This document shows, piece after piece, positions 28,064 through 37,125 of a DNA stretch of 64,000 nt. The stretch is from Paenibacillus chungangensis (GTDB lineage: Bacteria > Bacillota > Bacilli > Paenibacillales > Paenibacillaceae): NCBI RefSeq assembly GCF_042675905.1, contig NZ_JBHTJZ010000011.1, positions 54,636-118,635 of the forward strand, given 5' to 3'. The position numbers and the translations under genes are program-made. The number at the start of each line of letters is the position of its first letter. Positions within the stretch are counted from its first letter, which is position 1. The notes under the pieces are model-generated. The model worked only from the letters and a program-made list of their open reading frames with translations. It did not search any database and had not been told where the DNA came from.

Positions 28064-28849
28064 TCACTCCTCGTCGCTGACCAGCAGATCGCGGAGCAGA
28101 CGTTGCGGATTGTTCATGAATTGTCTCGTGATCGCCACATGCTCCGTCTCCTCCCAGCTGACTTCGTCTATCGCATCCTCGTTCAGTTGATAGATAATTG
28201 CGTCGGGATACGCCATTAGAATCGGCGAGTGCGTAGCGATAATGAATTGAGAGTTGCCCTCCACAAGCTGATGCATGCGGGCGAGCATCGCCATCTGGCG
28301 GGAGGGGGATAACGCTGCCTCCGGCTCGTCCAGAATGTACAGGCCGTTCCCGCTGAACCGATGCAGGAATGTCGCGAAGAACGACTCCCCATGCGACTGC
28401 TCGTGCAGCGACTTGCCGCCGTACGATTCAATGATGGGCGGACCGAAGGAGTGTTCCCGGTCCATCTCATCGATACTGGTCGCCAGATTGTAATAGCTCT
28501 CCGCACGGAAGAAGAAGCCGTCTCTCGGTCTTCTTGGCCCTTTCACTGTACGTAAGTATTCATGCAGCGGGGAATGGGTCGCCGCTGTCTCGAAGGTGAA
28601 GTTCATCGTTCCCCCTTCCGCATTGAACCCCAGCGCCACGGCGATCGCTTCGATCAAGGTCGACTTGCCCGCTCCGTTCTCTCCGACGATGAACGTCACC
28701 TTGGGATGGAACGCAAGCTCGTCGAGATGCCGTACAGCATCCAGGCTGAACGGATACGACTCGAAGGAAGGAACCTGTTCCCGTAGCAGATAGACCTTCC
28801 GCAAGTAATGACCCAACTCATACAGAGACACCTCTACACCGACCTCCAT
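28064..28849 (-). CDS. Small stand-alone ABC-type ATPase (AAA_21/COG3910-like)
   Basis: Walker A GENGAGKST, Walker B LYILDEPEAALSP, H-loop ATHSP. 261 aa with no effector domain. Confidence 0.7.
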   Translation of the reverse strand: MEVGVEVSLYELGHYLRKVYLLREQVPSFESYPFSLDAVRHLDELAFHPKVTFIVGENGAGKSTLIEAIAVALGFNAEGGTMNFTFETAATHSPLHEYLRTVKGPRRPRDGFFFRAESYYNLATSIDEMDREHSFGPPIIESYGGKSLHEQSHGESFFATFLHRFSGNGLYILDEPEAALSPSRQMAMLARMHQLVEGNSQFIIATHSPILMAYPDAIIYQLNEDAIDEVSWEETEHVAITRQFMNNPQRLLRDLLVSDEE

Positions 28850-28956: not shown

Positions 28957-29475
28957 CTAATTCCCGCTCCACTTCTCCCCTTGCAGCTGCTTCCACACGG
29001 TTTTGTTGCTGTATTGCTTCTGCGAACTGATATCCTCGCCGAACCATTCCGGCGCGACGAACGCCTCCGCCTCCTCTACAGAGTCGAATTCCACCTCCAG
29101 CACAGCCAGTTGAATCTGGTCGTACATATCCATTTCCACCGTTCTCCCGTTCCACTGCGCGGTTAGGCGGTTTTTCGTCAGAGGCGTATAGCCGAAGGCG
29201 TTCATCACCTGCTCATAGATGCCTTCCGATATGTCGTATTCCACTTCTTCACGTACAAGTCCGTTGCCACGCTTGAACGTATGGGTGTAGGTCACTTCTC
29301 CTGTACCCATATCCGTAATGCGGCGGACTCTCAGCTCCTGCTGCTCGTCTATCGCGATATAAGTTTGTTCAATCCGCTGCTCCGACACCAGCGCAAGCTC
29401 CCCGGAATCCAGCTTGTCCAGTGACTGCTGCGGCAGCAAGTACTTTTTCTCTATCTCCATTCCCATCTCATCCAC
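28957..29475 (-). CDS. CYTH-domain (triphosphate tunnel metalloenzyme) protein, YjbK-like
   Basis: EIEKKYLL (ExExK) N-terminal motif. About 170 aa. Confidence 0.7.
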   Translation of the reverse strand: MDEMGMEIEKKYLLPQQSLDKLDSGELALVSEQRIEQTYIAIDEQQELRVRRITDMGTGEVTYTHTFKRGNGLVREEVEYDISEGIYEQVMNAFGYTPLTKNRLTAQWNGRTVEMDMYDQIQLAVLEVEFDSVEEAEAFVAPEWFGEDISSQKQYSNKTVWKQLQGEKWSGN

Positions 29476-29808: not shown

Positions 29809-30597
29809 GTTGTCGTTATCACCTTCTCCATGCTACTTACTTTTTCTTTGCCACCAGCTTCAGCAACAGAAACAACACCTGACCTCCCAGCCAATGCCGA
29901 TCTTATTGTCAAGGAAATTATGGAAGGGCTATTGGCGGATCAGGTTCAACCGTTATCTTTTTCCAGTGATGATGAACCTCAAATTGTGGAATTAGATCAG
30001 GGATATGGCGTTCAGATTGAAACTAAAAATTCCAATGACGAGACCTCTTTGACGACAATTATTCCCTACAAAGTTGATGAAAATGACAATTTGATAAACA
30101 GTTTTGAATACTTAGCTGAGCAGAATGACGTCATCCGACCAATGGCCGAATCAACCGTTCCGACAACGTTCGTTGATGTGACTCTCACTGTTAAGACATA
30201 TTACGCACATTATTTTTCTTTGACAAATGTTTCAAATTTTTATCGTCATGCAGGAATTGAAGCTTGGTGGTCTTCCAATAACTCGACAGTCAGCGTATCG
30301 AGTATGACCGTCAATTATGAAACCGCCGGAGAACTGTATCGTTATCCTGACTGCATCGATGGATCGCTCAGTTCGACGAAAGTGCAGGACTATTATTACA
30401 AGAAAAGCAGTATTGTAAAATCGAATCCGACAAAAGACAACGTATACATTGATGGCAATAACACCATGCCGTTTGACCGTGTTGTATTGTTAACTGACTA
30501 TTTCAATCATGGGGGCCTCATTTATCTGAGTCTTACTTATTCAGTTAACGGAAACACGCGCACCGATGACAGGAGTTATTATGTTTATTCAAAATAG
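29809..30597 (+). CDS. Secreted hypothetical protein encoded in a low-GC islet
   Basis: GGAGGA SD then TTG at 29809 or ATG at 29830. LPPASA-type signal cleavage site. No recognisable domain. GC markedly below flanking DNA. Confidence 0.5.
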   Translation, partial: VVVITFSMLLTFSLPPASATETTPDLPANADLIVKEIMEGLLADQVQPLSFSSDDEPQIVELDQGYGVQIETKNSNDETSLTTIIPYKVDENDNLINSFEYLAEQNDVIRPMAESTVPTTFVDVTLTVKTYYAHYFSLTNVSNFYRHAGIEAWWSSNNSTVSVSSMTVNYETAGELYRYPDCIDGSLSSTKVQDYYYKKSSIVKSNPTKDNVYIDGNNTMPFDRVVLLTDYFNHGGLIYLSLTYSVNGNTRTDDRSYYVYSK

Positions 30598-31234
30598 AAA
30601 AGAGCTGGTACGTATTAGAAAAAATAGATCATTATTTAGTGTTAGTCTACTTGCTTTACTAGTGGCGATACTAATTGCGGGGTGTGCTTCTAGTAACAAA
30701 CCTTCTAAGGAACAAACCTCTACCAATCAATTGGATCAAGTTGTTGTTAATATTCATAGCGATGGGAATTACGTATTTGAGGACCAAGCCTGGATGACAT
30801 CCAAAGAAGATGTTATGAAGGCAAAGGGCTTCAATCAAGCAGATGTTAACGGGAAAGATAGGTTAATAGCCAAAGGAGAATTTCCTTTGGATGAATCTTT
30901 CAATCAATTAGTGATATACAACTTTGAAGACGATCAGCTTGTATCCGGTGAGTATCTCTTTTCTGTAGCTGACAAAGAGCGGTTTACAGCCCTCTCTAAA
31001 GAGCTAAAGATCCTATTATCATCATCGTTGGAAGCGCCAATTTCAAATGACTTGAGCCTACTCGATGAAGCCGCTTCAGCTGCGCAGGAAGGAAAGCATG
31101 TGATGTGGGAAGGTAAAGACAAAAGCAATTTGCGCTTAAACGTGCTGACAACAACCAATGTTGGAAAAATGGAATACTTATTGCAGATTCAGAGCAATTC
31201 CCCACGTCCCGCAAAGAAAACACTTCATTCATAA
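30581..31234 (+). CDS. Lipoprotein, hypothetical (low-GC islet)
   Basis: GGAG SD then ATG at 30581, overlapping the upstream stop. Signal LLALLVAILIAGCASSN with lipobox. Confidence 0.55.
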   Translation: MFIQNRKELVRIRKNRSLFSVSLLALLVAILIAGCASSNKPSKEQTSTNQLDQVVVNIHSDGNYVFEDQAWMTSKEDVMKAKGFNQADVNGKDRLIAKGEFPLDESFNQLVIYNFEDDQLVSGEYLFSVADKERFTALSKELKILLSSSLEAPISNDLSLLDEAASAAQEGKHVMWEGKDKSNLRLNVLTTTNVGKMEYLLQIQSNSPRPAKKTLHS

Positions 31235-31290: not shown

Positions 31291-31502
31291 TCAACTCAAT
31301 AGACAATAGCCAAAGAGCAGTCACAGACATCTTGACTGTTCTTTAGCTTTGCCCATAACGTCTTGCTCTGTCCATCACGCCCCTGTGCCTCTTGAAGTCT
31401 TGGCGCTCAGCAGCGAATTCAGCTGCTCCAGCAGGTTGCCGCCGCCAGTCAAGGAGATGTGGCCGATCTTGTCGCATATTTTCTCCAGGAACTCCAGCTC
31501 CT

Positions 31503-32498
31503 TCAGCCGGAACACAGCGTCTCGTTCTCGTCCATCAACTTCGCCGTATTCAGCAAGCTGCGGGTGGAAGCCGTCTCCTCCCTGCGAGTAATCAGATTCG
31601 CCTGCGCTCGCTTCTCCGCCAGCAGCACCGTGTTCAGAATATCCTTCACCTCGCCGGGCAATATGATATCCTTCAGCCCAGCCGACAGAAACTGGATGCC
31701 GTAATCGCCGCTCTTCTTCTCCAAGCGCTCCAGCACGAACGCGCCGATCTCCTGCTTCATCCGCAGCATATCGTCCAGCTTCATCGTCCCCACATACTCC
31801 CGCAGAATAAGCTGCAACAAGATGTACACCTGATCCTCTAGATGCTTCACTTCCAGTGCCTGGAGCGGATTGACGACCCGATATTGGCAGACAAAATTGA
31901 GCCTTAGCGTCACTTTGTCCTCCGTCATCAGTTCTTGTCCGGTCATGTCCAGCTGCTGAATACGCAGATCGGCGGTGCGGACGGCCACTTGCACAGGCCC
32001 CTTCCAGAAGCAGTATCTCCCCGGCGCCAGCTCCCGCTGCAGCACATTGTCGTAGAACAGCAGACCCGTCTCATGGCTTCCCACCTCGAACGATTGCACA
32101 TAACGGGTCAATCGGGGCAATATCGCCTTGTTCATATCGGCGCCTATTTCCGGCTTACGGGTGTCTACTGCAACGAAGTGATGCTTCTTCATCGTGTTCC
32201 AAAATGCATACACGCCCGGCGTCAACAGCCTGGCGAACCGCCCGTCCTCATCATGCAGCACATACTCATGATCCTGCACCTCGACTACCTCAAGCTCCTG
32301 CATCAGCTCGGTATCCTGGAGGAAGACATCCAGCTCCTTGCCAGGTACGAGGAACGGCTGCGCCATGTTCATGGCGAGCATAGACTGTTCCGACCATTTG
32401 GTGAACCGGTATGTGCCCGGCCCCACATGCTTCACATAACTCCCGTTTTTGAACAGCAGCCCTCTCTCATCTCGGCCGATCGTCACTTTTTTCAACAT
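31503..32498 (-). CDS. SPFH/Band-7 (stomatin/flotillin-like) domain protein; the 3' end appears frameshifted (see findings)
   Basis: AAAAGGGG SD then ATG at 32498 gives MLKKVTIGRDERGLLFKNG. SPFH-like core. A conserved-looking tail continues in another frame down to 31375. Confidence 0.6.
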   Translation of the reverse strand: MLKKVTIGRDERGLLFKNGSYVKHVGPGTYRFTKWSEQSMLAMNMAQPFLVPGKELDVFLQDTELMQELEVVEVQDHEYVLHDEDGRFARLLTPGVYAFWNTMKKHHFVAVDTRKPEIGADMNKAILPRLTRYVQSFEVGSHETGLLFYDNVLQRELAPGRYCFWKGPVQVAVRTADLRIQQLDMTGQELMTEDKVTLRLNFVCQYRVVNPLQALEVKHLEDQVYILLQLILREYVGTMKLDDMLRMKQEIGAFVLERLEKKSGDYGIQFLSAGLKDIILPGEVKDILNTVLLAEKRAQANLITRREETASTRSLLNTAKLMDENETLCSG

Positions 32499-33127
32499 AA
32501 TGCTTGCACCCCTTTTCAATTTCATTGATAGCAAAATATCATTTCAAGGCTGGAATAGCCCTATTCAGCAAAATCGTCATCTGGTCGACCGCGCTGCGGG
32601 AATGATCCTGCCTTGCAAGGCGGAATACGGTTTAAGGGGGAGAGCGGCATCCCATTGACTGCCCCGTAGACTGACGGCCCTCGAAGCCCGACTTCGGTTC
32701 TTAACCCATCTGTGTCCGTGACAGCTTGCCGGAAGACGCTTCTCTTCCCCGGTATCCACCGATTGCGAAGCCCGCTCGGCAGTGGACAGCGGCATGGCCG
32801 CTATCCTGATCATTTCCGCGCAAAGTCTCTTCATCATCCATTCATTGTTCTCGATTGAAAGTCGAGTACTCTACCATGAGTGTATCGCCCTGAATGCGAC
32901 CGGGAATCGAACCCGAGACCAATATCCCACATATTGGAGGTTAGCGCCCCGCAATCCATACAGCATACAAGCGCACAGAGTGCGCCTGCACTGCGGAACC
33001 TAGTGATGTTCCTGCCCGGGTATGCCGCTGACAGACTGCTAACCGAAATCTATCATGAAAATCTCTTCTGGAGATTGTTCATTCCTTCATAATCAAAACT
33101 CGCTTCGGAAATGGTTGGTTTTATCGC

Positions 33128-34553
33128 CTAAACACCCTTCACTACCGCTAACGGCTTACACTTCGCCACAACATCCGCGAGCATAGCGCCCGTGACGCTG
33201 TCAATGATCTGATCGACATCCTTGTAAGCCTGCGGACATTCATCCAGTATCGTCTCCAGCGTGCGGTGGTTGACCAGTACTTCTTCCTCGGTGCCCACCT
33301 TCATGGATTGACGGAATTCATCCACCGTGACTAGCTCCTTCGTCGCCCGGCGGGATCGGATACGGCCGGCGCCATGGCAGATGGAGTAAAAGTTCTTCGC
33401 GCCTTCCTCCCGGCCGACCATAATATACGAGGCGGTGCCCATGGAGCCCGGTATGAGAGCTGGATGGCCCGTCGTCTTGTAAGCCGGCGTGTTCAGGAAG
33501 TGTCCCGGCGGCAGTGCGCGCGTCGCTCCCTTGCGATGCACCAGCATAAGCTCCTTGCGGTGAAATTCCTGCAGTGCATAATTATGCATCAGATCGTACA
33601 GCACCGGCAGCTCCATCTTCGCATCCAGCACATCGCGGAACGCCTGCTGCACGCCGAAAGCGATCATATGCCGGTTGCTGACGGCGAAGTTCAGTGCGGA
33701 GTACATCAGATTCAGATACCGCTTGCCTTCCGCGCTTGCGACAGGGGCATAGATCAATTGCGGGTCAGGATTCGTAATGCCCCAAGCGTCCATAGCCGCC
33801 TTGATCTCTTTATTATGCTCGCGGCCCACCATCGCGCCCCATGCTCGAGAGCCGGAATGAATCATGACGACAACCTGCCCGTCGAACATGCCCCATTGCT
33901 CTGCAAGCTGCCGCATACCTTCCGGTATTTCCAACGCTTGCAGCTCGATGAAGTGATTGCCGCCCAAAATCCGCAAGCGAGCCCAGTTGCCCGTGGGCAT
34001 GCTTGCGGATTTTGGGCGGCAGCTGCTCCAGATACTGCTGATCGTATGCAAAGGCTGCATGCTCGACATGCGTCAGCCAGCGCTCGTTCGGCACATATTT
34101 CTCCGGCAGTCCCTTCAGCCCGTGGCGGACTACCTCCATAATGTCGATATCTGCGTAATTTGTATTTGTCCGCTCATTCGTCGGGACGTATTGCTCAATC
34201 GCGTTCATGATCGCTCTGCGCAAGCTCTTATCCATCAGATCCCGCTTATGCAGCGGGGTAAGGTGGACCCTCATGCCGCAGCCGATATCGGAGCCGACGA
34301 TCGATGGCGATACGCAGCCATCCTTCATTCGCCATACCGCCGTCGTGCCTATGCACGTTCCGACGCCCACATGAGCGTCCGGCGTATAGCTGATATATTG
34401 GTTGCGCGGAATGCGCAGGTTATTGTCCGCCATCTCGTACACTTTGCCCTCGAACGTACCGAACACTTCCTCGTTAGCGAAGACATGCAGCTTGCCATTG
34501 TTTAGTTCCCATTCGTAGTGATTATTGCCGTGGTATTTATATTGATGGTTCAT
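33128..34553 (-). pseudogene. rtcB: RNA-splicing ligase RtcB, disrupted by a frameshift (two overlapping ORFs in frames 2 and 1)
   Basis: N-terminal part MNHQYKYHGNNHYEWELNNGKLHVF...KIRKHAHGQLGSL runs in the frame ending 34748. The remainder ILGGNHFIELQ...KPLAVVKGV runs in the frame of 33128..34069. The GGNHF(I/L)E metal-site motif and the C-terminal VVKG are RtcB hallmarks. SD GGGAGGAA precedes ATG at about 34553. Confidence 0.6.
33957..34021. repeat. Perfect 21-bp inverted repeat inside rtcB at the frameshift point
   Basis: tgccgcccaaaatccgcaagc (33957..33977) and gcttgcggattttgggcggca (34001..34021) are exact reverse complements separated by 23 nt. Confidence 0.8.
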
Positions 34554-34803
34554 CGTGTTGATTCCTCCCGTTACACTCCCGCGGTCATCTGGGGTGGCGT
34601 ATGCATTACACAGCCAGCTTCTTATCTTTGCCAGCCGCCCGCCGCTCGCTCTTCCCCGCTTGCCGCTTCCTGTTGCCTCTATGATGCCTGAATTCTCCTC
34701 CTGCGAACATGGTGAAAGTATTACGACTTGGCAAATTTCTGCACGCATTTACTCCCTTCTTCTTCTCCTGCTACAATAGTCTGGAAAGGAGCGATGTAGG
34801 CGG

Positions 34804-36123
34804 ATGGCCAGAGAAAGCTTCGATAGAGAGATTCAATACTTGCGCATGCTGGCGCTCACTAGCGGCGCATACAACCGCCAGCAGTATGCGGAGCGCCTCG
34901 GCATCTCTGTGCATACATACGACAAGATGGCCCGGCGTCTGAAGGAGATCGCAAGCACCGTTCAGCAAGCGGGACCGGATAAGGCCGACAAGGACTTCGG
35001 CGATATGCTGCGCTACAGCTATCCCGATTCCGCGGATCCCATGCTGCTGTTCCTGTTCCGGGGGAAATCGTTGAAGGAATCCGAAAGCCAGCGCTTGTCT
35101 CTTCTGCTTACGGCCATGCAGGACAGCCCGCAGACTGCGCTCCAGCTGCTGGACATCTGCTGCGAGGGAATGGATGAAGTTCTTTCCTTACCGGACGAGA
35201 AGACGATTCGCGGCGACCTGAAGTATCTGGAGGGTGTCGGTGTTATTCAGAAGCTGGGAAGCTCGCGTCCGTATCGCTATCAGCTGCGCAACGACTGGAT
35301 CAGCGAGCTGACTGCGGACGAGCTGCTGGACCTGTACGATTTCGTCGACATTATGGCCAACACCCAGCTCCCCTCCGTGCAGGGCTATCTGCTTCGGGAC
35401 AGTCTGAAGAAGCAACTGCTTCGGGACGGCTTCAAGGATGATCACGACGGGCTTGAAGCCGCGTTGTACAAATACCATTTCTACTCCCGCATTCTGGACG
35501 AAGCTCATCTGTTCAGCCTGCTGCAAGCGATCGAGGAGCGGCGCCGCGTCTCTTTCCTGTACTTCACCCCGAAGCGCGAGACAAGCTACGCCTCCCGCAA
35601 TACGAATCCGCTCTACGAGCGGGATAACATGGGCAAGCAAGTGTCGCTTCTCCCGTTGAAGATTGTCTATGACCATCAGTACGGCAGATGGTATCTGCTA
35701 GGCTTCAGCCGCGGACTGAACGTGCAGAAGTTCCGGATGGAGGGCATCACGCAGCTGGCTGTCGCGGATGTCGTGCCGGAGGACGAATATTTGGAGAAGC
35801 TGGAGCTGCTGGAACGGCGCGTGAAGCATAGCTGGTTAATCGATACGGGCCGCAAGGTGCTCATTCGCCTGAAATTTTACAATCCGGGACCGTCTATCCC
35901 GAACTTCGTGAAGGACCGGGTGCGGCATCAAGGCCAGTGGGGAACGATTACCGAGGAGCAGGAAGAGGGATTCATCTACGAGATTGAAGTGAACGGAACG
36001 ACCGAGATCAAGCCATGGATCAGAAGCTTCGGCTCCAGTTGCGAGGTGTTGGAACCGGCTTGGCTGCGGCAGGAGCTGACCCAGGAGTGGAAGGAGATCG
36101 GAGCATACTATGAGCCTCTTTGA
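34804..36123 (+). CDS. WYL-domain transcriptional regulator (HTH-WYL-WCX architecture, PafB/PafC-like)
   Basis: N-terminal HTH (YAERLGISVHTYDKMARRLKE). Literal WYL motif GRWYLLGFS. C-terminal WCX-like extension. 439 aa. Confidence 0.75.
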   Translation: MARESFDREIQYLRMLALTSGAYNRQQYAERLGISVHTYDKMARRLKEIASTVQQAGPDKADKDFGDMLRYSYPDSADPMLLFLFRGKSLKESESQRLSLLLTAMQDSPQTALQLLDICCEGMDEVLSLPDEKTIRGDLKYLEGVGVIQKLGSSRPYRYQLRNDWISELTADELLDLYDFVDIMANTQLPSVQGYLLRDSLKKQLLRDGFKDDHDGLEAALYKYHFYSRILDEAHLFSLLQAIEERRRVSFLYFTPKRETSYASRNTNPLYERDNMGKQVSLLPLKIVYDHQYGRWYLLGFSRGLNVQKFRMEGITQLAVADVVPEDEYLEKLELLERRVKHSWLIDTGRKVLIRLKFYNPGPSIPNFVKDRVRHQGQWGTITEEQEEGFIYEIEVNGTTEIKPWIRSFGSSCEVLEPAWLRQELTQEWKEIGAYYEPL

Positions 36124-36919
36124 GAAAATATTCAACTATCAAATTCTGTCGCGGCTGCATGACAACGGCACCTTCATGACGACATCTCATGAGCGGAGCT
36201 GGCTGAAGGGGATGCTGGAGCACGAAGCGGCGGACGAAGCCTTGCTGCCGGATACACTGGACAAGCTGAAGCGGCACTTGGCGGAGGAGGCCATGCCGGA
36301 TTGGGATCGGCATCTGCTCATGAAAGCGGCAGGGCGGGAGACGCAAGTCTATCACCCGCTTATTCGCCCGCTGCGAAGAGCGATGCTGAAGGGATGCTTG
36401 CTGCAGCTGGACTACGGCGTGAAGGATGGGCGATGCCATGAGCATGTTGCCGCCCTCCCTTACAAGCTGGAATATTCCATGGTGAAGCGAGAATGGTACT
36501 TGCTCTGGCTTCACGTACGTCTGCGCATGATGATGAGCACCCGGCTTAGCAAAATAGTGGCGTTCCGCGAGACGGAATGCCCGCAAGAACAATATGCGGA
36601 GCTGCTTGCCACCGTCAAGAAGCGGTTGGCAGGCAAGCAGACATCGGCTGTTATCCGCATCGTGCCGGAATATAATGAGGAGCTGTCGCGCATTCTGTAC
36701 GCTTTTTCACCTTTTGAACGCGATATTGATTACGACGAGGAAGCCGGCGAATACCGGATTACGCTCTATTTCGCCAAAGATGAACTGGAATATGTGCTGT
36801 CGAAGCTGCGCTTCCTCGGCAAGCGGGTGCAGGTGATTCAGAATGATCGGCTCATTCAGCGGATGCGCCAGACGGTAGAGTGGGTCATGGAACGATATAG
36901 TGAGGAGAGGGAGTCATGA
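36110..36919 (+). CDS. WYL-domain regulator paralogue, translationally coupled to the upstream WYL gene
   Basis: ATG at 36110 overlaps the upstream stop at 36123. Motif REWYLLWLHV. 269 aa. Confidence 0.7.
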   Translation: MSLFEKIFNYQILSRLHDNGTFMTTSHERSWLKGMLEHEAADEALLPDTLDKLKRHLAEEAMPDWDRHLLMKAAGRETQVYHPLIRPLRRAMLKGCLLQLDYGVKDGRCHEHVAALPYKLEYSMVKREWYLLWLHVRLRMMMSTRLSKIVAFRETECPQEQYAELLATVKKRLAGKQTSAVIRIVPEYNEELSRILYAFSPFERDIDYDEEAGEYRITLYFAKDELEYVLSKLRFLGKRVQVIQNDRLIQRMRQTVEWVMERYSEERES

Positions 36920-37125
36920 GGGGTTCGTCGACAATATCCTATGCCGATGGTCCGCCCCCACAATGGTAAGTGTGGGCGGTCAGCGTACGTTTGGTGCGGC
37001 TATGTGACCATTTTGAGCGATAGAGAGCGACTTTGCGACGGACGAGGCACTCTTGGTGGGCGAAGCTATCTAGACGAGCACGAACGCCGCTACGCAACAC
37101 ACTTGCCGCGTCCCCTCAACCCACT

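Follow-up and report, generated by a model that had tools for sequence, protein, structure and literature searches.

A WYL-domain protein pair as a candidate regulator of RNA-repair operons through a shared upstream element in Paenibacillus and related Bacilli

The stretch of DNA analysed here, referred to below as the window, comprises 64,000 nucleotides (nt) of the genome of Paenibacillus chungangensis (assembly GCF_042675905.1, contig NZ_JBHTJZ010000011.1, positions 54,636 to 118,635 of the forward strand) and contains two adjacent genes of WYL-domain proteins, here named WYL-A and WYL-B, that are divergently arranged from an operon beginning with rtcB, the gene of an RNA 3'-phosphate ligase. 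WYL-A (34804..36123, 439 amino acids, aa) and WYL-B (36110..36919, 269 aa) are read on the plus strand and rtcB (33128..34553) on the minus strand, while the 250-nt intergenic region between rtcB and WYL-A (34554..34803) holds a conserved 24-nt element, Box 1 (34704..34727, plus strand), which is the presumed operator. The original prediction had placed here two WYL reading frames with overlapping stop and start head-to-head with rtcB, and had proposed that the pair controls rtcB in place of the sigma54-dependent regulator RtcR; the WYL reading frames and their overlap were confirmed, whereas rtcB proved to be split by a 7-nt insertion. From the comparison of this locus with its relatives we consider it likely that the WYL pair regulates RNA-repair operons, of which rtcB is only one possible member, through Box 1.

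WYL-A is a regulator of the winged helix-turn-helix (wHTH)-WYL-WCX, YafY-like type, its WYL and WCX domains being recognised in the protein itself and its helix-turn-helix (HTH) regions through homologues. Its layout includes the two HTH regions (residues ~10-50 and ~105-165), a helical linker, the WYL domain (235-319) and the WCX domain (354-432). The Pfam models of WYL (PF13280) and WCX (PF25583) were matched with 28.2 bits (cut-off 21.8) and 53.8 bits, respectively, and the WYL model of PADLOC with E=1.9e-28. Both HTH matches of the window copy are below the Pfam thresholds, but they exceed them in homologues, where HTH_11 scores 26-27 bits (cut-off 25) and HTH_DeoR 22-23 bits (cut-off 21); in the homologues P0031 and P0036 these two regions lie at residues 10-50 and 132-154, the second belonging to a DeoR-like winged HTH of residues ~105-165, and HTH_11 is matched by 21 of 23 members of the WYL-A family. 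Close homologues of WYL-A number in the hundreds, with those of Paenibacillus and Brevibacillus being 61-69% identical over 100% of the length, and the NCBIfam search returned no family for either WYL-A or WYL-B. The WYL-A profile gave nothing significant against the PDB, the PafBC chains 7p5x_AY and 9fnd_X being found at E=0.59-0.6, and the WYL-B profile had no match at E up to 1, so that the comparison of folds was used instead. The structure model of WYL-A, which was taken for fold-level matches only, gave significant Foldseek matches to PafB (9fnd_X, E=1e-11) and DriD, with BrxR and CapW absent.

The second protein, WYL-B, is built of a helical N-terminus of 83 aa, a WYL-like beta-barrel (residues ~97-155) and a WCX-like alpha/beta domain (~159-268). 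In Pfam nothing was above threshold for it, the WYL domain reaching only E=0.038 and 14.4 bits, and there was no HTH or WCX match; the PADLOC WYL model, in turn, matched residues 78-258 with E=2.3e-13, and hhalign aligned residues 84-256 with residues 233-427 of WYL-A (E=5e-4), with residues 176-256 falling on the WCX domain of the latter. The structure model of WYL-B is reasonably confident (mean predicted local distance difference test score, pLDDT, 78.5), with a ferredoxin-like alpha/beta C-terminal domain and with N-terminal 83 residues that are helical, of low confidence and devoid of a wing, and its Foldseek matches include DriD, PafBC, WYL1, BrxR and CapW (E from ~1e-8 to 1e-3). Thus, by PADLOC, hhalign and Foldseek, WYL-B is a WYL-WCX protein without an HTH. 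The pair was originally described as two paralogous HTH-WYL-WCX proteins, which holds for WYL-A, with its two HTHs, and for the WYL-WCX part of WYL-B but not for an HTH in the latter, and the paralogy is, judging from the sequences, very distant (27% BLASTP identity over 64 aa). Taken together, the pair carries two HTH, two WYL and two WCX domains, the same sum as in PafB and PafC, but with both HTHs on the A chain. Conserved residues of the WYL domains are R295, K309 and R311 in A and K126, R145 and K148 in B. The homologues of WYL-B, 47-60% identical, are found by the hundreds in Paenibacillus and its relatives. In the PADLOC scan of both proteins only the generic WYL, Cas3c and HORMA models were obtained and no BrxR- or CapW-specific model.

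The two genes overlap by 14 nt, with the ATG of WYL-B at 36110 and the TGA of WYL-A at 36121-36123, and a GGAG motif at 36100..36103 (plus strand), which precedes this ATG by 6 nt and falls within the 3' end of WYL-A, would serve as the ribosome-binding site of WYL-B. Relatives of WYL-A were sought in one genome per species, with 413 genomes matched, and the loci compared below are the best 80 of these, originating from Paenibacillaceae, Brevibacillus or related Bacilli. WYL-B is located downstream of WYL-A in 80 of the 80 loci, the 14-nt overlap is kept in 73 of 82, and the pairwise distances of A and B are correlated across the loci (r=0.90). Two close relatives are L001, a contig with a 97%-identical WYL-A and an rtcB orthologue of 94% nt identity, and L002, Paenibacillus sp. 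J5C2022, with 95.9% nt identity. One locus, L005 (DATJKM010000018.1), is labelled 'Candidatus Udaeobacter', a metagenome-assembled genome of Verrucomicrobiota, and bears a typical Paenibacillus-type arrangement with the same operon and a 66% identical WYL-A; it is probably a binning contaminant. No relatives of WYL-A were found in viral contigs, and the phage or mobile origin of the pair was rejected on this ground.

The neighbours of the 80 loci were grouped by clustering and then scanned with Pfam. The conservation of the order WYL-WYL-rtcB across relatives, which had been put forward as a check of the original prediction, was found for the pair together with an RNA-repair operon and much less so for rtcB itself: at least one RNA-repair marker gene is present on the divergent strand within 7 kb in 78 of the 80 loci, while an orthologous rtcB is directly adjacent in only 29. 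The markers include RtcB (56 loci), the nucleotidyltransferase RlaP (51), Band-7 (29), Ro/TROVE proteins with a vWA domain (21), KptA/Tpt1 (10) and Pnkp/Hen1 (6), and RtcB is represented by subfamilies of 472 aa, of 473 aa at 57% identity and of an E. coli-like 408-aa type at 28% identity. Among the further cassette genes are TatD, AAA+ and ABC-type ATPases, CYTH and a protein with the SEC-C motif, and in one sub-clade (L014) a DNA_alkylation repair gene is added to the operon. Apart from the pair, the 80 neighbourhoods share no recurrent regulator gene, RtcA was not seen among the recurrent neighbours examined, and no genes of recA or lexA type were found among the linked genes of the 80 loci. 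The two loci without repair genes, L047 and L070, are also the two without Box 1. The constancy of the WYL pair against the varying cargo of RNA-end-healing and -sealing genes supports the functional link better than one conserved gene pair would. At three loci (L032, L071 and L081) a MoxR AAA+ ATPase gene and a vWA/metallopeptidase gene are inserted between the box and WYL-A and share the strand of the latter, with a TROVE-RlaP operon divergent, and these two genes would accordingly be co-transcribed with the regulator pair.

Box 1, which reads CGAACATGGTGAAAGTATTACGAC in the window, was found by the k-mer counts in the 260 nt upstream of WYL-A and has the consensus CGAACATGGCGAAAGTATTACGAC, from which the window copy differs by one mismatch; it is present in a single copy in the window, with 0 expected by chance. 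The element is non-palindromic, with the motifs CGAA, CGAA and CGAC at ~10-bp phasing. Within 1.5 kb upstream of WYL-A the consensus is met with 0 mismatches in 30 of the 80 loci, with at most 2 in 59 and with at most 4 in 73, the orientation is constant and the end of the box lies at a median of 81 nt before the ATG of WYL-A. Four more loci (L032, L040, L071 and L081) have the box farther upstream, in L081 as a near-exact copy, which brings the total to 73-77 of 80. The alignment of 78 loci anchored on Box 1 gave, when read towards the repair genes, the consensus GAAAAnTTTTC-N4-GTCGTAATACTTTCGCCATGTTCG-C-N8-AAATAAGC-GAnGAT-AG. A promoter of the repair operon, P_rep, is predicted here at 34681..34709 on the minus strand, with a -35 element TGTTCG (34709..34704) that belongs to Box 1, a 17-nt spacer and a -10 element CATCAT (34686..34681), and the family consensus TGTTCG-N17-GAnGAT is found both in the 78 loci and at the orphan repair operons described below. 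P_rep would thus be a weak promoter of sigma-A type with its -35 inside Box 1. With the start site predicted in this way, the centre of the box would fall ~41 bp upstream of it, and this position together with the weak -35 and -10 elements would correspond to the classical layout of an activator-dependent promoter.

On the other strand the consensus scan predicts the promoter of WYL-A at 34748..34777 (plus), consisting of TTTACT, an 18-nt spacer and TACAAT with an extended -10 TG, and the TGnTACAAT block of this promoter is conserved across the loci (CCTGTTACAAT). A further element, Box 2 (GAAAAnTTTTC), is located at 34730..34745 (plus strand), 4 nt from Box 1 on the side of WYL-A; it is the perfect palindrome AAGGAAAATTTTCCTT in the rtcB-Band-7 clade (L003-L018 equivalents), is degenerate in the window (GCAAATTTCTG) and could be a second operator or an autoregulatory site. 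The absence of a sigma54 element upstream of rtcB, stated in the original prediction, was borne out, no -24/-12-like site (TGGCAC-N5-TTGCW, with up to 2 mismatches) being found in 34554..34803; the whole window contains 29 such sites against 34 expected by chance, and a sigma54 promoter for rtcB was rejected.

In metagenome contigs 30 loci with Box 1 were obtained, many of which repeat the order of WYL pair, box and repair operon, while several longer contigs bear orphan boxes with no WYL pair nearby. Such orphan boxes precede the 408-aa type of RtcB in L089 (38 nt before the ATG), a structured RNA with Band-7 in L090, L092, L093 and L096, TROVE in L100 and RlaP in L108. In each case the box is aimed at the repair genes and is usually preceded by a tract that is T-rich and terminator-like; the gene beyond it has the same direction as the repair genes and, therefore, is not headed by Box 1. 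The presence of the box at repair operons without an adjacent WYL pair means that the factor recognising it acts in trans and that Box 1 is not simply an element of the WYL-A promoter. The WYL pair, as the sole regulator recurrent beside the box, is the obvious candidate for this factor, and the distribution of the boxes indicates, at the level of sequence, that Box 1 would mark a regulon extending beyond the local pair.

The operon facing the pair in the window is damaged in two of its genes. The rtcB gene, of the 472-aa subfamily according to Pfam, tblastn and the alignment to L001, is read in two frames (34553..33813 and 34069..33128), and the Pfam model RtcB (PF01139) is complete only across two fragments, which cover model positions 13-150 and 152-426; both are below the equivalog cut-offs of NCBIfam. 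The alignment to the intact gene of L001 places a 7-nt insertion at ~33965-33973, within the codons of GSLGGGNHFIE (GGGNHF motif), while the two close relatives L001 and L002 both possess an intact 472-aa gene, so that the window copy is a probable pseudogene. The second protein gene of the operon, SPFH/Band-7 (31375..32498, minus strand, Pfam Band_7), is frameshifted by a 2-nt (TG) insertion at ~31515-31520, reading cTGTGtt where the relatives have ctgtt or ctgta, as seen from the tblastn match in two frames, and its last ~45 codons (RLKELEFLEKIC...) are in another frame. Sequencing error was considered as the source of the two frameshifts and judged unlikely, neither insertion being of the homopolymer type and the 7-nt insertion being the sole coding insertion or deletion against L002 in 33096..36927, a judgement made on a single sequence. 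The repair cargo appears to be decaying in this genome, unless the insertions are assembly errors; in the window the two regulator genes are intact, as are Box 1 and the two promoters predicted.

Between rtcB and SPFH/Band-7 the minus strand encodes a conserved structured non-coding RNA of ~480 nt (32596..33074), which was aligned across 22 loci and has a tRNA-like T-arm (GGGTTCGATTCCC) and a D-arm-like element. RNAalifold, with 18 loci, gave 105 pairs, of which 64 vary on both sides, and 91.7% of the cells are paired, against ~40% when the 3' partner columns are slid. Rfam at the gathering thresholds and ARAGORN found nothing in the whole window, and the sole Rfam match in the spacer between rtcB and Band-7 is a sub-threshold one to YrlA (24.4 bits, cut-off 69). 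On the metagenome contigs the same RNA stands directly after Box 1 and before Band-7, and it probably belongs to the regulated operon. It is probably the Band-7-linked 'tRNA-like RNA' reported in the abstract of Burroughs and Aravind (2016).

Farther along the minus strand the CYTH-domain gene (28957..29475) and the gene of an ABC/SMC-like ATPase (28064..28849) are 66-69% identical to distal genes of the rtcB-Band-7 operon in the relatives, where they belong to the same minus-strand operon; here they are cut off from it by two plus-strand open reading frames (255 and 222 aa, at 29830..31234) of low GC content (~45%), the second of which has a lipoprotein-type signal (LLALLVAILIAGCASS). At this place the relatives have operon genes on the minus strand, either that of the SEC-C protein or those of the c92 cluster, and the two reading frames accordingly look like an insertion or replacement. 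On the other flank, L002 holds between WYL-B and a gene of a FAD-dependent oxidoreductase ~1.7 kb of extra DNA, including a 315-aa reading frame (3954..5698 of L002, compared with 36927..37125 of the window), which is missing from the window.

Among the known systems, the pair resembles PafBC, the activator of the response to DNA damage found in mycobacteria and Arthrobacter, in being two adjacent co-expressed WYL-WCX paralogues, in the fold matches of 9fnd_X to A (given above) and of 9fnd_Y to B (E=2.4e-8), and in the asymmetric target element that occupies the place of a good -35. Contrary to what the original prediction had supposed, the architecture is not the same: PafB and PafC have one wHTH each, whereas here both HTHs are on A and none is on B, and there is no significant sequence relationship (E=0.59 for A). 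PafBC is further set apart by its host group, the Actinobacteria with the context of the Pup-proteasome, and by its regulon of DNA repair, while the present pair is found in Firmicutes without this context and is linked with RNA repair. Box 1 (CGAACATGGCGAAAGTATTACGAC) presumably also differs from the RecA-NDp motif of PafBC. In RtcR, by comparison, the likeness is one of arrangement, namely a regulator that senses a ligand and is encoded divergently from the RtcB- or Ro-containing repair operon under its control, with a tRNA-like non-coding RNA among the members of the operon (rtcBA and rsr-yrlBA-rtcBA of proteobacteria); RtcR itself is a CARF-AAA+-HTH protein working with a sigma54 promoter, whereas the pair consists of two proteins of an unrelated family (HTH-WYL-WCX) and has no sigma54 site, and no CARF-AAA+ sigma54 activator was present among the neighbourhood reading frames scanned. 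By analogy, the pair is a likely Gram-positive counterpart of RtcR/sigma54 in function. The original proposal of control over the divergent repair gene in place of RtcR/sigma54 is strongly supported by the conserved synteny and the shared Box 1, with corrections of detail for the frameshifted rtcB, the variation of the partner gene and the domain layout that differs from PafB/PafC.

DriD of Caulobacter, an activator gated by single-stranded DNA (ssDNA), has the domain order wHTH-WYL-WCX of WYL-A and is the best fold match of the WYL-WCX half of WYL-B (7tzv and 9cu3, TM-score on the target 0.51-0.55), but it is a homodimer encoded by a single gene, its target being a 20-bp palindrome at promoters whose -35 and -10 elements are normal (PMC9186387), while the present module has two genes and its box is non-palindromic. 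BrxR and CapW, of the same wHTH-WYL-WCX superfamily, are likewise encoded beside the system that they regulate and are weaker fold matches of WYL-B (E from 1e-4 to 1e-3); they are homodimeric repressors of BREX or CBASS with palindromic operators, in contrast to Box 1, and no BREX, CBASS or other defence genes were present among the scanned neighbours, which were RNA-repair genes. WYL1, the accessory protein of Cas13d (PDB 6oaw, E=1.9e-5), is similar to WYL-B in having a WYL domain without a canonical wHTH and in being the partner of a nucleic-acid enzyme, and differs in its ribbon-helix-helix domain, its association with CRISPR and in having, as far as is known, no second WYL protein as a partner. 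According to PMC11804915 (2025), no heterodimeric WYL proteins other than PafBC and its orthologues have been reported to date, and WCX is the dimerisation domain in PafBC. The full-text literature search, which did not cover Burroughs and Aravind 2016, returned no paper describing the WYL-A/WYL-B pair or Box 1.

On these grounds the following course of regulation may be proposed. WYL-A and WYL-B would be co-transcribed from the extended -10 promoter and translationally coupled via the 14-nt overlap, so that the two proteins would be made together. They would then be joined by their WCX and WYL halves into a hetero-complex whose DNA-binding domains are on A only, and we regard such a heteromer as fairly likely, the constant co-occurrence of the two genes, their 14-nt overlap and their correlated divergence giving it indirect support. 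The tandem HTHs of A would read the asymmetric Box 1 over the -35 of a weak promoter facing away from the pair; the asymmetry of the box would suit an asymmetric complex rather than a homodimer, as the homodimers of DriD and BrxR bind palindromes (PMC9186387). Bound at this -35, the complex would activate the promoter once a ligand occupies one or both WYL domains, and the repair operon so controlled would in the window comprise rtcB, the tRNA-like structured RNA, SPFH/Band-7 and possibly more, and the same box at unlinked operons would place a small RNA-repair regulon under the pair. Activation on ligand binding, as with DriD and PafBC, is given a slight preference over repression, because the promoter elements are weak, the box is suitably positioned, and PafBC and DriD, which give the best matches by fold, are activators, with BrxR and CapW absent from the significant matches of A.

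Several points weigh against the regulation of RNA-repair operons by the pair through Box 1. The frameshifts in rtcB and Band-7 may mean that the circuit is vestigial in this genome. The structure model of WYL-A is poor (mean pLDDT 61.7), with the N-terminal HTH unresolved, P_rep is a predicted promoter, and it is from sequences and models that we infer both the binding of A and B to each other and their binding to Box 1. The 80 loci are nearly all of Paenibacillus. That the adjacency of the WYL pair and rtcB is due to chance, without any functional link, would agree with the small number of loci where an orthologous rtcB is directly adjacent and with a probable rtcB pseudogene beside an intact pair, but it is very unlikely, close to negligible, on the comparative data, given that an RNA-repair operon occupies the same position in nearly all the loci despite its differing genes and that the box, common to most of them, is lost together with the repair genes in L047 and L070. 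Box 1 could also be recognised by a different factor, for instance an unlinked regulator or an alternative sigma factor, with the pair being only a co-regulated member of the regulon or acting post-transcriptionally as a nucleic-acid-binding accessory of the repair machinery, as WYL1 does for Cas13d. The action of the binder in trans at the orphan operons, the lack of a DNA-binding domain in WYL-B and the segment AAATAAGCGAnGATAG downstream of Box 1, which is more conserved than an ordinary -10 requires, would all be accommodated by such a factor. It is nevertheless quite improbable, since the two HTH domains of A are of the kind typical for transcription factors of the YafY type, the pair is the only recurrent regulator in the neighbourhoods, and a divergent regulator and operon with a common conserved box is the standard layout of a local transcription factor. 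The reading of Box 1 as a plus-strand promoter of the extracytoplasmic function (ECF) type (GAAC-N15-CGAC) was rejected, as such a promoter would point in the wrong direction at the orphan operons, which have no gene downstream on that strand.

The nature of the signal is a separate question within the regulation by the WYL pair through Box 1. The ligand would be a damage-derived single-stranded nucleic acid, with broken RNA preferred over ssDNA, though an RNA ligand remains a somewhat short-of-even prospect. The alternative keeps this circuit but has ssDNA bound by the WYL domains and the RNA-repair regulon switched on as one arm of the genotoxic-stress response, which would be in keeping with DriD and PafBC, both having an ssDNA signal, as the best fold matches of A and B, and with the DNA_alkylation repair gene in the L014 sub-clade. 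The rsr-rtcBA operon of Salmonella and Rsr of Deinococcus are likewise induced by DNA-damaging agents. Against a DNA-damage signal, the great majority of the linked genes are specific to RNA ends (RtcB, Pnkp/Hen1, RlaP, Ro/TROVE and KptA), without genes of recA or lexA type, the WYL fold is Sm-like, and WYL1, the Cas13d accessory protein, binds single-stranded RNA, which gives a precedent for the recognition of RNA by a WYL domain. According to PMC11804915, the structurally characterised WYL transcription factors all bind ssDNA, and every characterised factor with ligand data binds ssDNA (PafBC, DriD and CapW) or cyclic di-GMP and not RNA, which tells against an RNA signal for the pair as well, and ssDNA is, therefore, kept as a serious, if rather unlikely, rival. 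PMC9503650 and PMC7824862, from the Aravind laboratory, predict that factors of the WYL and CARF type in RNA-repair systems act as sensors of RNAs carrying 2',3'-cyclic ends, a prediction (PMC9503650) that again speaks against a DNA-damage signal; together with the purely RNA-directed regulon, these statements suggest broken RNA as the ligand. The link between WYL factors and RNA repair in general is already predicted in the comparative-genomics literature. The most far-reaching form of the proposal, in which A-B would be the first heteromeric WYL sensor with one HTH-less subunit and the first WYL factor with a damaged-RNA ligand, activating a Box 1 regulon of interchangeable RNA-repair modules as an independent Gram-positive solution to the problem solved by RtcR, is unlikely to hold as a whole; the candidate ligands would then be tRNA halves, fragments ended with a 2',3'-cyclic phosphate, or the cleavage products of the tRNA-like RNA of the operon, which would act as a 'sentinel'.

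The module represents a concrete and widely conserved candidate for the sensing of RNA damage and the switching of RNA repair outside proteobacteria, and comprises a regulator pair, a defined 24-nt operator, as predicted, and a set of target operons; the regulon also includes the structured RNA, which is large and conserved and for which no Rfam family reaches its threshold. If the proposal is true, the pair would follow PafBC as a second kind of heteromeric WYL regulator, with the labour split in an unusual manner between a subunit on the DNA and its partner and with both perhaps sensing the ligand, and one could learn from it how, in WYL sensors, the binding of a ligand is coupled to the recognition of an asymmetric promoter.

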